DNA of 11,342 nt. It comes from Bdellovibrionales bacterium. GTDB lineage: Bacteria; Bdellovibrionota_C; UBA2361; RFPC01. The translations under genes were made by a program, and so were the position numbers. Positions 133 to 11,019 of this stretch are shown here, one piece after another. The first letter of the stretch is position 1. Each line of letters opens with the position of its first letter. Where the stretch lies: assembly GCA_020434495.1 (NCBI GenBank), contig JAGRAT010000082.1, forward strand, positions 1-11,342, written 5' to 3'. A model generated the notes under the pieces. The model was not told the origin of the DNA, made no database searches, and saw only the letters and a program-made list of their open reading frames with translations.

Positions 133-1794
133 TTGCAACAAAAGCTTGGCACAGTCATTCAATCTCCAGATAAACTCTTTGATATTTCGGCTGCTAACAT
201 GCCGGGCGATGGCATCGGTCGAGAAGTAGCAGCAGAGGCTATTGCTCTGCTCGAACAGGCTGGACGGTTAAGTGGACGACCAATCTTTAATTTTCAGCAT
301 TTCCTTCACCTTGGTGCCCGTTACATGGAAGACACAGGACAGTCTTGGACCCCTGCTGAACGAGATTTTATCGTAAATGAAGCGCAGGCATTCTTTATGA
401 TCGCCCTTGAGCCGGTGAGGAAAGAAGCGGGTTTCCCAGAGGCGAAGCGTTTTCAACATATGGAGGAGATTATCCTCCAAGGTGGACGGGTCGGTAAGGC
501 GACGAACATTAATATGCGCCCGGTTGTTGAGCCACACCCGGATTTTCGTTTGACACATACGCCTCAAACTGGAGGATTTCGGCTGTTCCTTACCAAGGGA
601 GATTCCAGCGAAGAGTTGTTACCAGCAGGCTTCGAAAGTTCAGCCGATGGAAAAACGTGTGTTGTTACGGAGTGTCACCGTCGAGAGGATTATCGTTCTG
701 CTATTCGAAATGGCATTGCCGCTACGCAGGAGGAATCGCTCGGACAGCCAGCAGCAGGAACTTTACTTGGTGGGGTGAGTAAGTGGAATGTTCTTAAGCA
801 CGCACACCGGATGGCCATGGTCGGTGCGTTTGAAGACCTTGCTGAGGAGATCTCTAATGCCGTGGGAGCAGGGTGTAACCCGCGACTCTTGACGGATTCT
901 TTCTGTGAACTCCTCGTACGTGCGCCCGAGAAAGCACCGCGGATACTCGTTTCTGATGCAACTCACGGGGCGTTACTGAGCCCAATGCTTGAGGCTTTGA
1001 ACGCGGGAGCGAGGGAACCACTCACTAAGCAGGTTAACCTTGTCATCGTTCGTGAGAACATTGAAGGCATGTACCGACAGATCGGCGAAGTGATTGAAGA
1101 AGTTGGTGGCCAACCGCAAGCGGTTACGCAGAAAGGAATTTTCACAGAGAGGATGATTCGAGAGGTCGTTGATGCTGGAATAGAGATAGCGATTGATCGA
1201 AGAAGTAGAGGACTAGACCACGGTATAAACGCCGTCACTGTGGTCCTTCCAGAGAGTTGGCCAGTCGCTGCCGAGCTTTGGAAGGAGATCGCGTTAAAGG
1301 TTGGAGAAGAGAAGTACTATCCCGTTAAATTCATGAATGGGTCAGAATTCCTCCTTCGATGCGTTACTGATCCTGACAGCATTGCTCAAGGAGTCTACGT
1401 TGCTTCGAACATGCTGGGGGACATTATAGGAGATGCTGCTGCAGGACTCGTAGGGGGACTGGGAGTGCCGGCTACTCATAATTTCAATTACGCGCGGCAT
1501 GGTTTCCGTCATACTGGAATGACGACCTCAGAACCACTTGGAGGAACAGCTCCTGATATAGCCGGGAAGGGTATTGCAAATCCGATAGCCGCGTTGCTGA
1601 CAGCTGGTGCAATGCTTCGCTATTACGGACATCCCGAACTTGAAGATAATTTGCTACGGGCAATTCATGATGTCACCGAGAGAAGCCCTGAACTCCGTAC
1701 TCCAGACATTGGTGGCCCTTCTCGGGATACCGCAACAAAGGAGTTTGGATCGGCTATTCGCAAGAGATTTGCTGAGATTACCAACGGCAGGTAG
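133..1794 (+). CDS. Isocitrate/isopropylmalate dehydrogenase family protein (beta-decarboxylating dehydrogenase fold) with a large internal insertion. The start is either TTG at 133 or ATG at 199.
   Basis: N-terminal dinucleotide-fold motif ANMPGDGIGREV (compare LeuB AVLPGDGIGPEV). Central VRENIEGMY (compare IDH IVRENTEGEY and LeuB VRELTGGIY). C-terminal NMLGDIIGDAAAGLVGGLGVPAT...GGTAPDIAGKGIANPIAALLTAGAMLRY almost colinear with LeuB NLFGDILSDE...[28 protein letters not shown]. The ORF is 553 aa against roughly 350-420 aa for the family. GGGAAGG lies 5 nt upstream of TTG 133. Confidence 0.8.
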   Translation: MQQKLGTVIQSPDKLFDISAANMPGDGIGREVAAEAIALLEQAGRLSGRPIFNFQHFLHLGARYMEDTGQSWTPAERDFIVNEAQAFFMIALEPVRKEAGFPEAKRFQHMEEIILQGGRVGKATNINMRPVVEPHPDFRLTHTPQTGGFRLFLTKGDSSEELLPAGFESSADGKTCVVTECHRREDYRSAIRNGIAATQEESLGQPAAGTLLGGVSKWNVLKHAHRMAMVGAFEDLAEEISNAVGAGCNPRLLTDSFCELLVRAPEKAPRILVSDATHGALLSPMLEALNAGAREPLTKQVNLVIVRENIEGMYRQIGEVIEEVGGQPQAVTQKGIFTERMIREVVDAGIEIAIDRRSRGLDHGINAVTVVLPESWPVAAELWKEIALKVGEEKYYPVKFMNGSEFLLRCVTDPDSIAQGVYVASNMLGDIIGDAAAGLVGGLGVPATHNFNYARHGFRHTGMTTSEPLGGTAPDIAGKGIANPIAALLTAGAMLRYYGHPELEDNLLRAIHDVTERSPELRTPDIGGPSRDTATKEFGSAIRKRFAEITNGR

Positions 1795-1814: not shown

Positions 1815-1846
1815 CAGCGGGAAAATGGAGCGCCCACATTTTTTTT
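1815..1846 (+). terminator. Possible weak intrinsic terminator or T-tract downstream of the dehydrogenase-family gene.
   Basis: Run of 8 T (1839-1846) preceded by GC-rich CAGCGGGAAAATGGAGCGCCCACA, which has only imperfect stem potential. The T-tract is clear; the hairpin is weak. Confidence 0.25.
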
Positions 1847-1910
1847 GCTTAACAAATTTAGTTCTTTATCCTTTTGCCTCGGAGATCGGGCAAAAGAAGG
1901 GGATGTCTTC

Positions 1911-4553
1911 ATGCGGCAAGCTACAGAGGTGCATCGAGCGTCACCTGAAGTTGATCAATACGACAAACTTGAATCCGAGGGCTTTTCCTCCAAACGTTCG
2001 CTTGGCCTCGGAAAACTCGCCAGTCTATTTGCTGCCTTTGTCCTTAGTACATCATTAGGGTCTGAAATTGGAGCACAAAATCGACCGGAGCGCCCAGCTT
2101 CGTCACCGTCAGAAAATTTGCCGCCAATTCCTAAAAACTACAATCCCGAGAGTGAAGCTGGAGCAAGAGCGTTTCTCGCACACCACGGTGTGAAACCAGA
2201 AGACTTGAAGATACTCCCGACCGAGGATGCTAGTGGAAATATCTCCTTCTCAGTAGTGGTTAAGGAAAAGAGAGAGTTCGTTTCCTTTTCGGAAAAAGTA
2301 GATTCCAAGAAGTGGGATTTGCGCGGCGGTTCTGCCATCGCGCTGAAACCCGGCGCTGATGCTTCAGAGTGGTATGCGGATATTCAAAATAACAACGGCG
2401 TGCGAAGGACAGTTCCCTTTGAGGAGCTAAAGGATCGGTTCGACCGGTCTCGCTTCTTTGTCTCGATTGAACTGTTCGGGCGTGATAGTGAGGGAGTGCA
2501 ATTCTATATCGGAACAGGTGTGCTTAAACCGCAACAGTTCACAGTTCGGGAGTTGTCCCGTTTGAAGGAAGAGAAGTCAGAGGCAGAGACTCCTGCTCGA
2601 GAACAGGTTGATACAGAAAAACAAGAACCGAATGCGACTCTAAAGTATGTCTGGCCAGGGTTAGCGCATGTTTGGGTAGGGCATGGAGAAGATAAAGTTA
2701 CCCAAGAAGAGCTAAGAGCTGAGGTAGAAGATCAACGGAACTCTCTTTGGAACGGGCGGCAAGTTTCTCTGCAAGCTGCTCGAAATGAAGTAGTGGCATT
2801 CAATCTTGTCCTTGAAGCGCCAGAAGGAGTGGCCAAAGATGTCACTGTTGAACTTCCAAAGCTCCAGAATAAAGCTCGTAAATACACCATCGATTCTAGA
2901 GAAACGAAGGGGGATGGGCTCTTTGATTACAGAAACCGTCCTATAGAACTCTTCGTCGTTGATTACCTTGAAATTAAAGGATTGAGTCGCGTTGGATGGG
3001 AAACCTACGATGAACGCCACATTCCAGAGCGTATGCGACGGCCATATTCCGGGGAAGGGTTCGGGGCAGGCAGTTGGAGTGATCGGCCAGATGCGAATCG
3101 GCACTATCCAGATATCGCCGTCCCGATTGAGGCAAAAGGTAAATTTTCTATCCAACCCGGTGCTAGTCAAAGTGTGTGGGTTGACGTATTCGTTCCCGTC
3201 GATGCTCCCTCTGGAAAGTACCAAGGAGAGATAGAGGTTCGTGAGAACGGGAAGCAATGGAAGAAAATTCCAGTTGAGCTTACCGTAATGGACTTCACCC
3301 TCCCGTTAGAACCCGCGGTGAATACTGTCATTCATATCGGGCAAGGCGAGGTAAAGCGACATCTTGGGATTCAAGAACCATCCACTGATAAAGAGTGGGA
3401 TCAGGCAAGAGAGCTTCGTGATAAATACTTTCAGATGCTGCACCGCCATGGCCTGATGGGAATTGGAGATGATGCTAGGGCTTGGGCAAGTGGAGGAGGG
3501 CACCCAAGTGAAGATTGGATCCCTCGGCTTTCCGGAGATCTCTTTACTCCGCGCCATCACTATGAAGGGCTTGGCCAAGGGGTGCCGAATGACGTCTATT
3601 CCGTAGGAACCTACGGCACATGGAATTGGAAGAATTTCGATCTCAGTACCCCAGCTGGTGTGGAGCAGGCTCGGTCCGCGATGTGGAAGCGAACCGATGA
3701 GTGGATGAAATGGTTTGCAAAATATGCCCCTGATGCTGAGGTGTTTCTCTACCTGGCTGATGAAAGTGATGATTTCACCTCTCTTGAAAGCTGGGCCAGG
3801 TTTATGAATGAGAATCCGGGTATCGGCAGGAGTATGAAATCATTTGCTACTATCTCGCTTCCCGATGCTCAACATCACGTGCCAGGGTTGGACATTGCTG
3901 CTACCCAGGCCGGTGCAGCTGGCATCCTCGATGAATGGATGGAGGCAGCGAGCTATTTTCGCGATCATCCCGAAAAAGAGCTTTACTATTACAATGGAGT
4001 ACGTCCACGCTCGGGAACTCTTTTGACAGAGGATGATGGGGTCTCTCCTCGAATGATTCCGCTTGTCGTTGAGAGAATGGCTCTCGATGGTTGGTTCTAT
4101 TGGGAATCAACTTACTACAACAACTATCAAGGCGGGACCGGTGAAACGAATGTCTTCGAACAGGCGCAGACCTTTGGAGGCAATAGCGCAGACAATGGAG
4201 AGCTCGGCCGGAACGGCTGGAACTACTCAAATGGGGACGGTGTACTTTTTTACCCTGGAACAGACACGGTGTTCCCTGAGGAGTCCCTTGGACTTCCTGG
4301 ACCCATCGCAAGCATACGACTGAAGTTGCTCCGTAGAGGCATGCTTGATGCTGCTTACGTCAAGCTCGCTGAAGAAAAAGATCCAAAGGCGACAGCAGAT
4401 ATTCTAAGGACTCTCTTGCCCAAGGTGCTATGGGAAATGGGAGTTTCGGATCAAGAGGACCCCACTTGGCTGCGGTCCGATATCTCTTGGTCTAATGACC
4501 CAGAGGTTTGGGAGGACGCTAGGAAAAAGTTGGCAAAGATAATCACTCGATAG
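1911..4553 (+). CDS. Secreted or membrane-anchored DUF4091-like protein, a putative GH123-type glycoside hydrolase. The ORF-track frame opens at TTG 1845; ATG 1911 is preferred.
   Basis: Long ORF with the RBS-like GAAGGGG 7 nt upstream of ATG 1911. Hydrophobic signal-like segment LGKLASLFAAFVLSTSLGSEIGA. C-terminal half has WFYWESTYYNNYQGG...NGWNYSNGDGVLFYPG and an adjacent Asp-Glu in FLYLADESDDF, reminiscent of DUF4091/GH123-like enzymes. The family assignment rests on motif recall, not a search. Confidence 0.55.
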   Translation: MRQATEVHRASPEVDQYDKLESEGFSSKRSLGLGKLASLFAAFVLSTSLGSEIGAQNRPERPASSPSENLPPIPKNYNPESEAGARAFLAHHGVKPEDLKILPTEDASGNISFSVVVKEKREFVSFSEKVDSKKWDLRGGSAIALKPGADASEWYADIQNNNGVRRTVPFEELKDRFDRSRFFVSIELFGRDSEGVQFYIGTGVLKPQQFTVRELSRLKEEKSEAETPAREQVDTEKQEPNATLKYVWPGLAHVWVGHGEDKVTQEELRAEVEDQRNSLWNGRQVSLQAARNEVVAFNLVLEAPEGVAKDVTVELPKLQNKARKYTIDSRETKGDGLFDYRNRPIELFVVDYLEIKGLSRVGWETYDERHIPERMRRPYSGEGFGAGSWSDRPDANRHYPDIAVPIEAKGKFSIQPGASQSVWVDVFVPVDAPSGKYQGEIEVRENGKQWKKIPVELTVMDFTLPLEPAVNTVIHIGQGEVKRHLGIQEPSTDKEWDQARELRDKYFQMLHRHGLMGIGDDARAWASGGGHPSEDWIPRLSGDLFTPRHHYEGLGQGVPNDVYSVGTYGTWNWKNFDLSTPAGVEQARSAMWKRTDEWMKWFAKYAPDAEVFLYLADESDDFTSLESWARFMNENPGIGRSMKSFATISLPDAQHHVPGLDIAATQAGAAGILDEWMEAASYFRDHPEKELYYYNGVRPRSGTLLTEDDGVSPRMIPLVVERMALDGWFYWESTYYNNYQGGTGETNVFEQAQTFGGNSADNGELGRNGWNYSNGDGVLFYPGTDTVFPEESLGLPGPIASIRLKLLRRGMLDAAYVKLAEEKDPKATADILRTLLPKVLWEMGVSDQEDPTWLRSDISWSNDPEVWEDARKKLAKIITR

Positions 4554-4774
4554 GGCGATAGGTGGCTCACAGGCATCTTATCCGAAGCACTAGCACTGCC
4601 CGATCATTGCGCGTTCTGGGGGGCCTTTGGCTACAGATTGTCAGAAATTCCCCCTGATTCTGCTAATTCTCACATTGGTTGGAAGGTTGATTGCGATGTT
4701 GTGAAGCTTGGCCTGTCAGTCGGATAGGTAAGTCGGTCTGGCAGAGAGTTAGGACTACTTTAAGAAGTTGAATT

Positions 4775-6682
4775 ATGACTTTACGGACAGCAAAGCGAGA
4801 ACCCTTTCACGAGTTGCCACTCAGCGATTTCGTTCAATTGGTAGCTCCGAAAAGCAAGGACTATCAGGGACCAAACAGTTTTCTCATCCCAGGTACCGAG
4901 CGAAAGGTCTCCATTCGAGAGATTGCTAATGATCCATTGCGCATCACAAAGACACCGAACCTGAAAGTAGCCTATGCGCAGGTGAAAACAGAGCCTGGAG
5001 CATTTGAGGAGAATCTCCGTGTGCATACCGAGGCTATGGCGAGGGCGCACGAGAGGGGGGCACATCTGCTACAGTTTCCCGAGATGTCTTTGCCGCATTA
5101 CTGTTCTCTAGATCTTTTGCTCGATCGAGACTATCTAAAGGCCCAGGAAGCCTGGCTTCAAGAAATAGTTGAGTTCTCAAAGAAAACTCCAGAACTTACT
5201 ACCGCGGTTGGCTATGTTGATGTGGATTGGGAGAGGGAACGAGCGGGCGGGAGGCCATACAATCGGAATGCTCTTGCGATAATTCGTGATGGCGAAGTGC
5301 TGGGTGTCGTTCACAAGAAGCTGCTCCCAAACTACGCTGTTTTCGATGAACACCGATGGTACGAACCAGGGACCGAGACCAAAGTCTTTGAAATCAACGG
5401 CACGAAGGTTGGTTTTCTCATCTGTGAAGACATCTGGGTCAAGGGATACGACGTTAATCCTATCGAGGATCTTGTAAATGCCGGTGCAGAGTTTCTCTCT
5501 CACTCGCAGGCATCACCATTTCATATTGGAAAGAATGCAACGAGAGCAGAGCTTGCTCAGTCCATTACTGATACCTATGGAATTCCCTTCGGCAGTGTGA
5601 ATGCCGTTGGTACCTTTGACGGATACGAGGGAGATCTGCCATTTGATGGACGAGGTATTGTACGTTCTGCAGATGGGCAGTGGCTTGCAATGGGAGCAGC
5701 TTATAACGAAGAGCTATTGCTACTCGATCCGTTCAGAGCAGCCCCAGACAAGATACCTGAACTCATGCCGATGCAGGAGCTCATTCTCTCTGTTGTTGAT
5801 TCGATGCAGAGCTACTTTAGCCGGCTGGATCAGGTAACTGGACAGACGAACTGCGCTGTGGTCGGTAACAGTGGTGGAATTGATTCAGCCGTGATCATTG
5901 CGCTTCTCCACCTAGCGATTGGACCGGACAGAATCCAAGCTATTAGTTTGCCGACAGTGATTAACTCTGAGGAAACAAAAGGTGATGCTCAAGAACTTGC
6001 TCACAATTTTGGTGTATCGTCTCGTGAAGTTTCGATTCAAGAGACATATGACTCCGTTAAGAAGCTGCTTTCTGAGGCGATAGAACTTGATCCGACAACT
6101 GACAATCGGGTTTCTCAGAATGCTCAGGCGCGGCTCAGAACGCTCGTATTGATGGCGTATTCTCAAGCGTTGGGTGGTGTGATGATTAACACCAGTAACA
6201 AGACTGAGCGCTTTACTAACAATTTTACTATCTATGCCGATTCGTCAGGGGCGTTCGGTCCAATAGCTGATGTTGATAAGGATAGAGTGTACGAGATGGC
6301 TCGATACCTTAACAAAGTGTTCGAGCAGATGGATGGCAAGCCGCGGATCCCTCAATCGATCATAGACCGAGAAGCGTCGGCTGAGCTCGATTTTCATCAG
6401 GTAGATGCCAATGTGATGGGGGGCAAACCTGAAGAGATCGCTCCTTTCATTCGAACCCTCATTGAGCAGGGACTGAATTCCTTTCCAAGTATGCGAGCAG
6501 CACTTCCTGACTCGGTAACTGATGAACTGATTAAACGTTGGGTTGGATCCATCGGAGCCTCCGAGTGGAAGGGAAGGCAATTGCCTCCAGGTACCCGTGT
6601 TACTCCTGTAGCCGCAGGATTCAATAGAAGAATCCCTATTAATCACCGGTGGAGAGGGCAGTTGCCAGGGGGAGCCGCATAA
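4775..6682 (+). CDS. nadE: Glutamine-dependent NAD(+) synthetase, with an N-terminal carbon-nitrogen hydrolase domain and a C-terminal NAD synthetase PP-loop ATP pyrophosphatase domain.
   Basis: CN-hydrolase signatures: LKVAYAQV...FPEMSL (Glu), VVHKKLLPNYAVFDEHRWYEPG (Lys) and GFLICEDIW (Cys). PP-loop motif VVGNSGGIDSAV followed by the NAD synthetase-like region. ATG start at 4775. About 60 aa precede the CN-hydrolase core. Confidence 0.9.
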   Translation: MTLRTAKREPFHELPLSDFVQLVAPKSKDYQGPNSFLIPGTERKVSIREIANDPLRITKTPNLKVAYAQVKTEPGAFEENLRVHTEAMARAHERGAHLLQFPEMSLPHYCSLDLLLDRDYLKAQEAWLQEIVEFSKKTPELTTAVGYVDVDWERERAGGRPYNRNALAIIRDGEVLGVVHKKLLPNYAVFDEHRWYEPGTETKVFEINGTKVGFLICEDIWVKGYDVNPIEDLVNAGAEFLSHSQASPFHIGKNATRAELAQSITDTYGIPFGSVNAVGTFDGYEGDLPFDGRGIVRSADGQWLAMGAAYNEELLLLDPFRAAPDKIPELMPMQELILSVVDSMQSYFSRLDQVTGQTNCAVVGNSGGIDSAVIIALLHLAIGPDRIQAISLPTVINSEETKGDAQELAHNFGVSSREVSIQETYDSVKKLLSEAIELDPTTDNRVSQNAQARLRTLVLMAYSQALGGVMINTSNKTERFTNNFTIYADSSGAFGPIADVDKDRVYEMARYLNKVFEQMDGKPRIPQSIIDREASAELDFHQVDANVMGGKPEEIAPFIRTLIEQGLNSFPSMRAALPDSVTDELIKRWVGSIGASEWKGRQLPPGTRVTPVAAGFNRRIPINHRWRGQLPGGAA

Positions 6683-8328: not shown

Positions 8329-8548
8329 GAAGGGTAAGTACCTGGCGATACTTGGGGAAAAGGTGCAGATAAGGGAAAAAAATTACCTTAAGAAAAATCG
8401 CTTTGTTAGCTTTCTAAACAGCTAGGCCCCGTTGGGCTTGGTCGTGGGATAGGTCAAGTGTTGCCGTCGCTTGGAGCGTCTGCCACTTCACCTGTATCCA
8501 CTGGTTCCCTTACAACCTGACTCGAGTAGAAGGAAAGAGACACACATC

Positions 8549-10702
8549 ATGTCTGAAGTTTTCACGTGGCTCGCCACCAACTGGTGGCTGGTCCTCATCG
8601 GCCTCGTCGCCCTCTGGTACCTCCTGGGCTTCCGGAAGGTCGGATCGGCCGACGTCGGCCTCGTCGAGTACATGATCTCGTTCAAGTCGAACGAGACCGA
8701 ACAGGCGGTGGTCGAGAGCGGTGCGGGCTACCGCATGCAGCTCAAGACCCCGGGTTGGCGCTGGGCGCCATTCCTGGTCGCCAGGATCCGCACCTTCCCG
8801 ATGGTGCAGGTGCCGCCGGGAGAAGTCGGCATCGTCTACGCTCAGATCGGTGAGTCGCTTCCTCAGGGTTTCCGTACTGCAGAGTACCTGCCCGAGATGA
8901 AGGACTTCACCAACCCGCGGACGTTCCTCGAGAAGGGTGGACAGAAGGGCATTCAGCGTCCGGTGCTTCGGCCCGGCGCGGTGCTCCCCATCCACCCGGT
9001 CGCCTTCCTGGTGATCACCTCCGAGAAGGTCTACGGACTTCCGATCGATCCGGCACTCCAAGGCAAGCGGGTCACCCCCGCGAGCTTCGGAGTGAAGCGG
9101 GCCGAGAGCCTGCAGCAGACCATCATCGAACCGAAGGTGGTCGAAGTCGATGACCCGGTGACGGGCCAGCGGGTGAGGCAACACACCGAGATGATCGGTG
9201 TCGTCACCTCGCACGAGGGTCCGCCGATCGACGGTGGTGAGATCGCTGGTCGCCTCGGTGGCTGGCAGGATCTTCAGGAGGCCTACGACGACGACAAGTC
9301 GCCGGAGGCCATCATCGAGCTCCTGCTCACCCCGAAGAACGGCAAGCACGAGAACTACCAAGACTTCCAGCAGTTCATCGCTGCCGGTGGTCGGGTGGGT
9401 CTTCAGCACGACGTGCTGCTGCCTGGTGCCTACAACATCAACCCGATCTGTGCGGTTGTCGAACAGGTTCCGATGCTCACCGTCGAGCAGGGACAGGTGG
9501 CGGTCATCAAGTCGTACGCGGGTCTCCCCACTGCTGATACCAGTGGTGAAGCCTTCAAGTACGGCTCGCTCGTCCGTCCTGGTCACCGCGGGATCTGGAA
9601 CACGGCGCTGACGACTGGTAAGTACGCGATTAACCCGCGGCTCTACCATCCGATCATCGTCCCGACCAGCATCATCAACTTGAACTGGGCGGACGCGACC
9701 TCCAACGCGCACCGACTGGACGCCGACCTGAAGCCGATCGAGGCGAAGTCCAAGGAAGGCTTCGTCTTCATGATCGACCTCGAAGTGCAGATCCACATCA
9801 GTGCGAACAAGGCACCGATGGTGATCAGCATGGTCGGTACCATCGAGAACCTCATCAACGAGGTGCTCCAAGGCGCGGTCGGCAACTACTTCCGTGACAC
9901 CCTGGCCTCGAAGGAAGCTGTCGAGTTCATCGAACAGCGCCAGAAGGTCCAGAAGGATGCGGAAGAGCACATCCGGGCCAAGCTCGCCGACTACCACGTC
10001 GAGACCCCGGGCGTCTACATCCAGGACGTCAAGCTGCCCGCTGACCTCGTCAAGGTGTTGCAGGAGCGAGAGATCGCGAAGCAGCAGAAGGCGACTTACG
10101 CGATGCAGCAGGAGTCCGAGCAGCAGCGTGTCGCAACCGAAGCCGCTCGCGGTGAGGCCGACATGCAGGCAGATCTCGCGCGCTCCAAGGTCGGGATCAC
10201 CATCCAGGCCAACAAGACGGATGCTCGCAAGCTGCAAGCTGCTGGTGATGCCGAGTACGTGACCTTGACCGGACAGGCCAAGGGCGCGGAGGTGCTTGCG
10301 ATCGGAGAAGCGAAGGCCAAGGGCTACAAGGCTCAGGTCGCTGCCCTCGGACGCAACAGCACTACTCTCGTCAACGTGATCACTGCCCTCGGCGAAGCAG
10401 GTCTGGACATCGTTCCGGATGTGCTCGTGAACGGCGGTGGTGAAGGCAACGGTGGTGGCGGCAACATGGCGGTCCTCGGACTCGTCACGAAGCTGCTGAA
10501 CGACCACCGCGACGATGACGACGACGACGGGAAGCCGGAGAAGCGCAAGCAGACCCGACGGACCAGGTCGAACGGCAAGGGTGGAGACGCTTCAGGCGAC
10601 TCTCCCAGGACTGATGCTCTGACCGACGCGCAGACTGATGACGACGACGAGGCCCTCACGGACCCCGACGAAGACACCAGTGGCGAAGAGGAACGCAGCT
10701 GA
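8549..10702 (+). CDS. Flotillin-like SPFH/band-7 family membrane protein with an acidic poly-Asp C-terminal tail, high GC.
   Basis: ATG 8549 preceded by GAAGGAAAGAGA. N-terminal TM helix WWLVLIGLVALWYLLG. SPFH-like start PPGEVGIVYAQ. Canonical SPFH C-terminal block GVYIQDVKLPADLVKVLQEREIAKQQKATYAMQQESEQQRVATEAARGEADMQ. Flotillin-type Ala/Glu/Lys/Gln coiled-coil repeats. C-terminal TTLVNVITALGEAGLDIVPDVLVNGGG resembles the FloT/YqiK C-terminus. Gly-rich linker and DDDDDDG...TDDDDE tail. Strong third-position G/C codon bias. Confidence 0.8.
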   Translation: MSEVFTWLATNWWLVLIGLVALWYLLGFRKVGSADVGLVEYMISFKSNETEQAVVESGAGYRMQLKTPGWRWAPFLVARIRTFPMVQVPPGEVGIVYAQIGESLPQGFRTAEYLPEMKDFTNPRTFLEKGGQKGIQRPVLRPGAVLPIHPVAFLVITSEKVYGLPIDPALQGKRVTPASFGVKRAESLQQTIIEPKVVEVDDPVTGQRVRQHTEMIGVVTSHEGPPIDGGEIAGRLGGWQDLQEAYDDDKSPEAIIELLLTPKNGKHENYQDFQQFIAAGGRVGLQHDVLLPGAYNINPICAVVEQVPMLTVEQGQVAVIKSYAGLPTADTSGEAFKYGSLVRPGHRGIWNTALTTGKYAINPRLYHPIIVPTSIINLNWADATSNAHRLDADLKPIEAKSKEGFVFMIDLEVQIHISANKAPMVISMVGTIENLINEVLQGAVGNYFRDTLASKEAVEFIEQRQKVQKDAEEHIRAKLADYHVETPGVYIQDVKLPADLVKVLQEREIAKQQKATYAMQQESEQQRVATEAARGEADMQADLARSKVGITIQANKTDARKLQAAGDAEYVTLTGQAKGAEVLAIGEAKAKGYKAQVAALGRNSTTLVNVITALGEAGLDIVPDVLVNGGGEGNGGGGNMAVLGLVTKLLNDHRDDDDDDGKPEKRKQTRRTRSNGKGGDASGDSPRTDALTDAQTDDDDEALTDPDEDTSGEEERS

Positions 10703-10718
10703 TCATCTTCCGATGATC
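10701..10718 (+). other. Perfect 7-bp-stem hairpin GATCATC-TTCC-GATGATC overlapping the flotillin stop codon. There is no following T-run, so it is more likely an RNA stability or processing element than an intrinsic terminator.
   Basis: Seen directly: 10701-10707 is the reverse complement of 10712-10718. Loop is TTCC. Confidence 0.4.
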
Positions 10719-11019
10719 GCGCGCTGAGCTGTCAGATTGCAACCGAGGCTGAGGGTGTGCTACGCGCATCTTCGGTCTCGGTCGCTTTGCAGGAATTCTT
10801 ATATGGTTTGCCATATTTTCCTTGCTCCTAGACAGGAACCGATGCGTTCCTACCTAGAAGCAGGGGAAAATGTTAAAGGTACAATATCGTTAACTAGGAT
10901 TTAGAATAGCAAAGCTCGCTTATACCTCACCTAAAAGTCTTTCCTTCTACTCACTTTTTTATTTCCTAGCTACTATCCAATAAGCTCCATTGGGCAGCGA
11001 TAAGAAAGGCATAAATTTT

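Follow-up and report, generated by a model that had tools for sequence, protein, structure and literature searches.

The window analysed here, the whole 11,342-nucleotide stretch of Bdellovibrionales contig JAGRAT010000082.1, carries a complete gene of the SPFH superfamily, the features of which are collected in Table 1. The 717-residue product is identical to the NCBI entry 'SPFH domain-containing protein [Bdellovibrionales bacterium]', which supports the ATG start at 8549. Scans with Rfam and for tRNAs, promoters and terminators returned no matches, and neither the protein nor its neighbours matched a PADLOC defence model. From the N-terminus, the protein consists of a transmembrane helix, two modules (R1 and R2), a linker, a third module (R3), the SPFH domain (module R4 followed by the alpha/beta part, SPFH2), a coiled coil of about 120 residues, a set of short C-terminal elements and a tail.

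Table 1. Features of the SPFH gene and its product. Coordinates are positions in the window.
Feature	Coordinates	Strand	Residues	Remarks
Ribosome-binding site AAGGAAAGAG	8530..8539	+		Seen in the sequence; 9 nt before the ATG
SPFH-superfamily CDS with tandem SPFH1/MVP-like repeats, complete	8549..10702	+	717 aa + stop	ATG at 8549
N-terminal transmembrane helix	8561..8629	+	5-27	AF2 helix 2-26, pLDDT 88-95
Module R1, membrane-proximal beta module	8630..8803	+	28-85	All-beta in the AF2 model
Module R2, canonical 73-aa repeat copy	8804..9028	+	86-160	Holds PPGEVGIVYAQ
Variable linker with small beta-hairpin	9029..9187	+	161-213	AF2 secondary structure
Module R3, interrupted by a helical insertion of ~50 aa (aa 229-278)	9188..9472	+	214-308	Repeat HMM
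SPFH/Band_7 domain, contiguous	9479..10126	+	311-526	Module R4 (SPFH1-type) makes up its first ~70 residues (aa 309-380)
Long C-terminal helices, coiled-coil 'wall' region	10040..10396	+	498-616	AF2 helices 498-600 and 602-616
C-terminal strand DIVPDVLV and Gly-rich linker GGGEGNGGGGN	10397..10462	+	617-638	VP[DE]xLV-GGG in almost all relatives
Short amphipathic helix	10463..10501	+	639-651	AF2; position conserved family-wide
Disordered acidic tail, lineage-specific	10502..10699	+	652-717	pLDDT <50 in the first AF2 model

The first hydrophobic segment (Kyte-Doolittle mean over 19 residues, 1.82) is a general feature of the family, as a transmembrane-like segment occurs in 144 of 151 members. 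Among the 133 informative relatives, lysine and arginine are richer on its C-terminal flank in 131 and on its N-terminal flank in 2. This clustering C-terminal to the helix points to a cytoplasmic location, and the bulk of the protein is thus predicted to be cytoplasmic, whereas HflK/C are periplasmic. The layout that follows is that of SPFH proteins, with the membrane anchor upstream of a domain of the SPFH alpha/beta fold and a long coiled-coil helix downstream of it; the coiled-coil region aligns to that of prohibitin (phmmer).

The original prediction had read the protein as a flotillin whose SPFH domain is split, its N-terminal strand (aa ~89) and its C-terminal block (aa ~490) being parted by an inserted independent domain of about 400 residues. 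The motifs on which this reading was built are all present (PPGEVGIVYAQ at aa 89-99, GVYIQDVKLPADLVKVLQEREIAKQQ at aa 488-513, GGGEGNGGGGN at aa 629-639 and DDDDDD at aa 655-660), the spacing of about 400 residues between the two SPFH-like blocks is correct, and the likeness of PPGEVGIVYAQ to an SPFH start is genuine. Nevertheless, we regard a split domain as highly improbable. The match to Pfam Band_7 (PF01145, clan CL0433) scores 76.2 bits, above the gathering threshold of 23.6 (E 4e-21), and profile positions 2-175 of 176 cover aa 311-526 without a break. The domain begins with a complete start strand of its own, MLTVEQGQVAVIKSY (aa 309-323), and in the AF2 model it is whole without aa 89-99. 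The sequence between the two motifs consists of copies of the same SPFH1-type module, and PPGEVGIVYAQ belongs to one of these copies, R2. What distinguishes the protein from textbook YqiK/FloT is therefore not an insertion between the SPFH halves; its architecture is indeed atypical, in that some 280 extra residues, all upstream of the SPFH domain, separate it from the membrane helix.

Profile comparisons identify these ~280 residues as tandem duplicates of the N-terminal module of the SPFH domain itself. An independent HMM, for which only the 73-aa repeats of P0121 were used, matches both R2 (aa 86-144, E 5.7e-9) and R3 (aa 268-315, E 1.1e-6), and in a Ralstonia homologue it also matches within the SPFH domain. 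By hhalign, R2 resembles R3 with a probability of 92% (E 6.6e-7) and R3 resembles R4 with a probability of 87% (E 4e-6). Moreover, the full length of the repeat profile can be aligned with the beginning of the Band_7 region (E 4.1e-5). The insertion in R3 is modelled as helices (aa 240-278), and the linker between R2 and R3 has the lowest conservation and occupancy of the protein body (0.60 at aa 201-220 of the family alignment). R1 is a less clear case: its profile similarity to R3 is weak (E 0.004), its strands in the AF2 model lie at aa 28-31, 35-41, 60-66, 69-72 and 78-84, and it lines up colinearly with the first module in giant relatives. It probably represents the SPFH N-terminal module in diverged form, with weak support as a repeat.

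The extra N-terminal region is not confined to this gene. At least 3899 homologues were retrieved, and the region is fully occupied in the family alignment. The family occurs in at least 565 genomes, and its members come from Acidobacteriota and many other bacterial phyla. Repeat copy number varies from 2 to 13 among these relatives, and a C-terminal VWA domain is found in 8 of the 26 long ones; scores for CshA_repeat and ATP-synt_ab_Xtn in the giants were disregarded as sums of weak repeated matches. No conserved gene neighbourhood was found across 82 loci, so that no neighbour hints at a client or partner. The neighbours that seemed most conserved at these loci were antisense shadow ORFs within the gene itself and were rejected. 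In the literature searched, no prior description of bacterial proteins with multiple SPFH1 modules was found, which does not prove that there is none.

The label of flotillin fares less well. Pfam searches returned Band_7 and a sub-threshold Band_7_1 alone, with no match to Flot, and no NCBIfam model, those for flotillins included, matched the protein. 'Flotillin' can thus be used as a loose label only, although some databases call some relatives 'flotillin family' or 'YqiK'. The closest PDB sequence matches are prohibitin and QmcA, not flotillin, and in structural score flotillin-1 ranks below prohibitin. Flotillins (flotillin-1/2, FloT/YuaG and YqiK) lack a repeat array, and HflK/HflC, QmcA, prohibitin, stomatin and erlin have a single SPFH1 module, against about four in the present protein (three extra modules, ~280 aa). 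The likeness to flotillins is found at the other end of the molecule. The long Ala/Glu-rich helix, followed by a C-terminal strand, a Gly-rich loop and a short helix, presumably resembles the flotillin C-terminus, and the conserved DIVPDVLV-GGG may correspond to the flotillin strand that closes the cage roof and to the Gly-rich loop after it. One could accordingly imagine an ordinary FloT/YqiK orthologue, organizing membrane microdomains and carrying an unrelated N-terminal domain whose vault likeness is incidental. Besides the missing flotillin matches and the ranking of prohibitin and QmcA, the homology of the N-terminal region to the SPFH start and its variation between 2 and 13 copies in relatives make this reading unlikely. 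We consider instead that the protein is probably a single-pass, membrane-anchored SPFH scaffold protein whose N-terminal beta-module (SPFH1, or MVP repeat in ECOD) has been tandemly duplicated.

The C-terminus ends in a conserved strand, a Gly loop and a short helix, and then in a variable disordered tail. The Gly-rich linker, which had been put forward as unusual together with the tail, turned out to be a conserved family element; with the amphipathic helix that follows, it is retained even in 30%-identical proteins of Rhizobium and Ralstonia, and relatives carry A[IL]EGLAATAMRF segments equivalent to this helix. The tail itself is unusual, as had been proposed, and is peculiar to this lineage. 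Aspartate and glutamate make up 36% of the tail (24 of 66 residues) and 11% of the rest of the protein, which is not a chance fluctuation of composition (binomial P 1e-7). Among 113 relatives it is the most acidic (net charge -13) and the longest, and it has the sole poly-Asp run; the tail of the median relative is slightly basic (net +2), and one subgroup has Glu/Lys-rich tails.

It was suggested that such a tail could be a functional module, binding divalent cations or polyamines or recruiting basic partners, and thus an adaptive novelty of the gene. Its marked acidity against the composition of the body would be in line with this idea, as would the accessory modules, such as VWA, borne by the C-terminus of relatives and the Glu/Lys-rich tails of the subgroup. 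We nevertheless find this idea improbable. The tail is common to no orthologue, and in the family alignment its occupancy is 0.23-0.53 and its identity about 0.07; the net charge of +2 in the median relative also speaks against it. The poly-Asp run is encoded by a GAC/GAT run (10511-10528) lying in a trinucleotide repeat (10510-10529), and the Gly-rich linker contains a 15-nt tandem duplication (10435-10465; Tandem Repeats Finder, period 15, 2.1 copies); neutral slippage typically leaves repeats of both kinds. The acidic tail looks like a product of such slippage and has probably expanded neutrally in this lineage alone.

The gene differs sharply in composition from its surroundings. Its GC3 is 0.81, compared with 0.44-0.47 in the five other ORFs, and the difference in GC between gene and flanks (+0.135) exceeds that at all 75 related loci. 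The exact protein was seen on one contig only. These observations could also be explained by a chimera of assembly or binning, in which case the high-GC gene would be foreign to the genome and its context meaningless. A chimeric join would, however, leave just one breakpoint, which could fall anywhere, whereas the composition shifts at both ends of the ORF, within about 100 nt (150-nt sliding window). Moreover, homologues reside on conjugative plasmids and on a megaphage, which makes the transfer of a single gene plausible. A chimera is therefore quite unlikely, and the gene seems to have arrived on its own by horizontal transfer.

A first AF2 run with a shallow alignment (53 close homologues) reached a pLDDT of 53; adding representatives of 30-45% identity to the alignment gave a better model (pLDDT 86.9, pTM 0.74), in which residues 1-530 are mostly above 90. 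[quoted passage not shown] At the level of fold, the protein thus has tandem MVP repeat domains N-terminal to a shoulder domain. None of this is visible in the sequence: Pfam, even at E<=10, gave no Vault-family match and nothing meaningful in the N-terminal region, so that neither a Vault repeat nor an MVP_shoulder model is matched, and no profile match was obtained either. With hhalign, the family profile aligned to human MVP in the shoulder region alone, with a probability of 12% (the human sequence used was validated against the PDB; residues 1-893, 1984 bits). The repeat profile reached E 0.4 against the MVP repeats, which were aligned from the single human sequence, and only a chance match (E 0.32) among PDB sequences. 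In the absence of repeat similarity at the sequence level, the likeness to MVP is structural and architectural only. The two proteins also differ in repeat length (~73 aa here, ~55 aa in MVP), in module number (four against nine) and at the N-terminus, where MVP has a free R1 joining two half-vaults. Here a transmembrane helix precedes the first module, instead of a soluble, free N-terminal repeat that could pair half-shells. A half-cage bound to the membrane is accordingly likelier than a closed, soluble 78-mer, which one would not expect.

Connections between the two groups of proteins have been noted before. MVP repeats are regarded as SPFH1 modules (PMC11348225, PMC13607799), and in the ECOD classification archaeal stomatin-like proteins have an MVP repeat ahead of SPFH (PMC13607799). 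Five-repeat homologues from Asgard archaea (PMC12962969) and MVP homologues in Myxococcales, Cytophagales and Oscillatoriales (bioRxiv 10.1101/872010) have been reported. Like the present protein, these prokaryotic MVP-like proteins combine MVP-type repeats with an SPFH domain. However, they were found by way of MVP itself (>50% identity or reciprocal best structural hits) or have a single repeat, whereas the present family is bacterial, anchored by a transmembrane helix, undetectable with MVP sequence models and variable in copy number, and its repeats demonstrably derive from its own SPFH start.

Both SPFH proteins and the vault assemble into cages, and what these do is still debated. To our knowledge, all SPFH proteins solved so far (HflK/C, QmcA, prohibitin, stomatin, erlin and flotillin) form large oligomeric assemblies. 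By analogy with these and with MVP, many copies of the protein would probably associate laterally to form a ring or a dome. The transmembrane helices would fix its wide rim in the cytoplasmic membrane, and stacked tiers of repeats would build up the wall, as repeats do in the barrel of the vault. Further up, the long helices would come together as a roof, sealed by the conserved C-terminal strand. Such a tall 'half-vault' would cover a patch of membrane and hold a lumen at its cytoplasmic face. All of this, the cage with its height and symmetry, is extrapolated from SPFH and MVP assemblies of known structure. The tail would project from the apex, which is the variable and probably partner-facing end of the family, since short low-complexity tails (in most relatives) and VWA domains (in the giants) are located there. 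In comparison with SPFH cage proteins, this gene has no adjoining NfeD or protease partner gene. It is tempting to suggest, although only as a tentative proposal that we would not yet favour outright, that this bacterial family could consist of membrane-anchored half-vaults, SPFH cages in which 2 to 13 tiers of duplicated, stacked SPFH1 modules add to the height of the wall.

For the gene studied here, the supposed insert is a feature of the family and the acidic tail is probably neutral. The ~280 residues upstream of the SPFH domain are covered by no Pfam model and could, for the purposes of annotation, be defined as a new repeat family. The transmembrane anchor, the variable repeat number and the detectable similarity between the repeats and the SPFH start make the duplication route testable, and members carried by culturable bacteria (Rhizobium, Ralstonia plasmids), among them the homologues WSH69272 of Rhizobium and UNK03869 of Ralstonia, are open to cryo-EM and genetics. 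If the half-vault proposal is true, the family would stand, as a living intermediate, between the eukaryotic vault and the classical microdomain cages of SPFH proteins, and would provide direct sequence evidence that tandem duplication of the SPFH N-terminal module can give rise to vault-type repeats. The giants, in which 13 repeats are combined with a VWA domain at the C-terminus, would then be a prokaryotic parallel to the vault with its VWA-containing partner.

The SPFH gene at 8549–10702 (+) encodes a real, atypical SPFH protein, although the original prediction mistook which part of it is atypical. The gene is a single long ORF, which the ORF listing of the window opens at TTG 8471. A ribosome-binding site precedes ATG 8549, and the 717-aa product counted from that ATG is identical to the NCBI entry 'SPFH domain-containing protein [Bdellovibrionales bacterium]'. 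All motifs quoted in the original prediction were found in the translation (Table). That prediction proposed that two SPFH halves are divided by a long insert. However, Pfam Band_7 matches in one unbroken stretch, aa 311–526, corresponding to profile positions 2–175 of 176 (score 76 bits; cut-off 23.6), and the domain possesses its own first strand; the split reading is thus unsupported. Membership in the flotillins is likewise unsupported by sequence models (Pfam, NCBIfam); annotation pipelines do label relatives 'flotillin'. The protein has no match in NCBIfam or PADLOC, and its nearest solved structures by sequence are prohibitin and QmcA. A 665-aa frame antisense to the gene was considered and rejected, being a shadow ORF that arises from the sense gene's high GC3; similar antisense ORFs occur in 46–63 related loci.

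The SPFH-like start noted near the N-terminus reflects a genuine similarity, as internal-repeat profile and HMM matches indicate: the SPFH domain's own N-terminal beta-module (SPFH1, the 'MVP repeat' of ECOD) has undergone tandem duplication, producing the extra N-terminal modules. In profile–profile comparisons of sub-alignments, R2 matched R3 (probability 92%, E 6.6e-7) and R3 matched R4, the resident copy inside the SPFH domain (probability 87%, E 4e-6). An HMM trained solely on repeats from P0121, a giant relative, matched the query at aa 86–144 (E 5.7e-9) and aa 268–315 (E 1.1e-6), and a mixed repeat profile aligned end to end with the opening 64 residues of the query SPFH region (E 4.1e-5). 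In the Ralstonia homologue, the repeat HMM also has a match within the SPFH domain. Two extra copies are firm in the query, R2 and R3, the latter with a helical insertion of ~50 aa; R1, adjoining the membrane, is probably a divergent third. No Pfam model covers aa 28–310, even at E ≤ 10. The stretch linking the membrane helix to the SPFH domain is shared beyond the query: it shows full occupancy in the 120 best homologues (49–55% identical to the query, 640–742 aa), with 24–67% of homologue residues equal to the query per 20-residue block.

Table. Features of the SPFH gene and its product, of the surrounding contig and of relatives
Feature	Position	Remarks
Ribosome-binding site	8530–8539 (+)	AAGGAAAGAG
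Transmembrane (TM) helix	aa 2–26	AlphaFold model
R1	aa 28–85	probable copy
R2	aa 84–162
PPGEVGIVYAQ	aa 89–99	quoted motif
R3	aa 205–310
R4	aa 308–380	Band_7 start
First SPFH strand	aa 309–323	MLTVEQGQVAVIKSY
Beta-rich modules	to ~aa 416	AlphaFold model
Alpha/beta SPFH2 part	aa 422–495	AlphaFold model
GVYIQDVKLPADLVKVLQEREIAKQQ	aa 488–513	quoted motif
Helices	aa 498–600, 602–616	AlphaFold model
Strand and Gly loop	between aa 616 and 639	AlphaFold model, unconfident
GGGEGNGGGGN	aa 629–639	quoted motif
Short helix	aa 639–651	AlphaFold model
DDDDDD	aa 655–660	quoted motif
15-nt tandem duplication	10435–10465	GGTGGTGAAGGCAAC / GGTGGTGGCGGCAAC, encoding GGEGN-GGGGN
GAC/GAT trinucleotide run	10510–10529	encodes poly-Asp
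Inverted repeat	10702–10720	GATCATC-ttcc-GATGATC; opens on the final base of the stop codon
Antisense shadow ORF	8510–10507 (−)	665 aa
Isocitrate/isopropylmalate-dehydrogenase family	133–1794 (+)	Pfam only at aa 294–542 of a 553-aa TTG-started ORF
902-aa protein	1845–4553 (+)	weak GH123 matches
Glutamine-dependent NAD+ synthetase	4775–6682 (+)	NF010588, 355 bits, under the equivalog cut-off of 479
Flanking ORF, 523 aa	6707–8278 (−)
Flanking ORF, 101 aa	11020–11325 (−)
Rhizobium ruizarguesonis pRlX4 (locus L083)	3968–6013	full-length homologue, same repeats
Ralstonia insidiosa pB1901 (locus L084)	3917–5992	full-length homologue, same repeats; adjoins PRTRC-system genes
642-kb uncultured phage, LR756502.1	343802–345544	full-length homologue, same repeats
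Giant relatives P0121, P0122, P0133, P0141		1300–1800 aa; TM segment, 7–13 73-aa repeats, Band_7, coiled coil, C-terminal VWA

An AlphaFold run with 53 close homologues alone gave a pLDDT of 53, which was improved by adding 30–45%-identical representatives; the model of aa 1–654 has a pLDDT of 86.9 and a pTM of 0.74, with residues 1–530 mostly above 90. [quoted passage not shown] From the content of 3gf5 and the alignment lengths, we infer that this match takes in the N-terminal modules. The query is an SPFH-superfamily protein of MVP-like build, combining multiplied SPFH1/MVP-like modules with a membrane anchor. At the sequence level, we found no link between its repeats and those of MVP, either with Pfam at E ≤ 10 or in profile comparisons with human MVP, whose sequence was verified against the PDB. 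Since the query neither belongs to MVP by sequence nor has a free N-terminal repeat, both defining features of MVP, we do not class it as an MVP.

The literature is split on the relation between vault and SPFH proteins. In an ECOD-based survey (PMC13607799), ordinary stomatin-like proteins of archaea were assigned an 'MVP repeat' upstream of their SPFH domain, whereas a 2026 in-situ vault paper describes the MVP domains as 'unique to the vault' and the vault as devoid of a membrane-anchoring motif (PMC13100048). Among prokaryotes, reports of MVP homologues cover a few bacteria as well as Asgard archaea, whose versions contain five repeats (PMC12962969; bioRxiv 10.1101/872010). In contrast to these described MVP/SPFH proteins, the query family is bacterial and widespread, carries an N-terminal TM helix, is missed by MVP sequence models and has repeats that are demonstrable copies of its own SPFH start. 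No earlier description of this large family was found in the literature searched.

By analogy with the assemblies solved for SPFH proteins and MVP, the protein could form a ring of many subunits standing side by side, with its rim fixed in the membrane by the TM helices. Modules R1–R4 and SPFH2 would be stacked into a wall taller than that of HflK/C or flotillin; the helices would converge, the conserved C-terminal strand would close the roof and the variable tail would leave at the apex. Lys/Arg residues are concentrated C-terminal to the TM helix in 131 relatives and show the opposite arrangement in two, so that the cage would lie on the cytoplasmic face by the positive-inside rule. We hold the architecture (domain map, repeats, fold and family conservation) with high confidence; for the tall half-cage itself, drawn from the solved assemblies, we would put the chances at about even.

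A phmmer search of 1.84 billion representative proteins with aa 1–310 found 721 clusters, including proteins of 1200–1800 aa that match in 7–14 separate stretches. In these giants, a 73-aa repeat recurs with perfect periodicity, in up to 13 copies, and is followed by Band_7 and a coiled coil; eight of the 26 long relatives carry a C-terminal VWA domain. PARP4, a vault partner, likewise has a VWA domain; this common feature may be a coincidence.

Towards the C-terminus, a VP[DE]xLV strand, a Gly-rich loop and an amphipathic helix are kept across the family. The Gly-rich linker is therefore ordinary for this family, being conserved even in the 30%-identical Rhizobium and Ralstonia proteins; the query's version is longer through a 15-nt tandem duplication. 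This duplication and the GAC/GAT run look like products of replication slippage. Past the amphipathic helix, the tail lacks conservation (occupancy 0.23–0.53, identity ~0.07). Among 113 relatives, it spans 22–90 aa after the motif with a median net charge of +2; in one subgroup it is rich in Glu/Lys (net −3 to −10). The acidic tail of the query is indeed unusual in this set, being the longest (90 aa), the most negative (−13) and the only one with a poly-Asp run; its Asp+Glu enrichment over the body has P ~1e-7. The tail belongs to the gene, since its GC3 (0.76) matches that of the body (0.82), and slippage in a freely varying region is the simplest origin. The tail could play a part in cation binding or recruitment, by analogy with relatives whose C-termini hold VWA or other modules. 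The proposed insert and tail peculiarities are mostly ordinary or idiosyncratic.

The gene forms a compositional island. Its GC content is 0.60–0.66, against 0.43–0.49 upstream and 0.36–0.53 downstream in the window, and its GC3 is 0.81, against 0.44–0.47 in the five other window ORFs. The gene-minus-flank difference (+0.135) is above those of all 75 related loci (median +0.010, maximum +0.090). These data suggest, as the best reading, that one gene alone was recently acquired by horizontal transfer from a high-GC donor. An assembly chimera could also have placed a high-GC gene in this contig, but the position of both composition shifts at the ORF ends, as resolved by 150-nt sliding windows, makes this less likely. 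The closest known relative among the matches listed is 55% identical. The inverted repeat at the stop codon is not followed by a T-run and was uncalled in a terminator scan. The remaining contig resembles housekeeping/metabolic genes. Neither of the two flanking ORFs matches anything in Pfam, NCBIfam or PADLOC, and neither accompanies the SPFH gene in any of 82 related loci; these loci share no conserved neighbour gene and no NfeD or protease partner.

Relatives occur in at least 565 genomes (one genome per species scanned). Those among the matches listed are all 49–55% identical to the query and belong mostly to Acidobacteriota, and also to Armatimonadota, Planctomycetota, Eremiobacterota, Actinomycetota and more. 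Full-length homologues of ~30% identity reside on Rhizobium megaplasmids, a conjugative Ralstonia plasmid and a 642-kb uncultured phage, and are evidence of gene mobility. The plasmid homologues, found in culturable bacteria, are useful experimental entry points into a family relevant to the unsettled relationship of the vault to SPFH cages.
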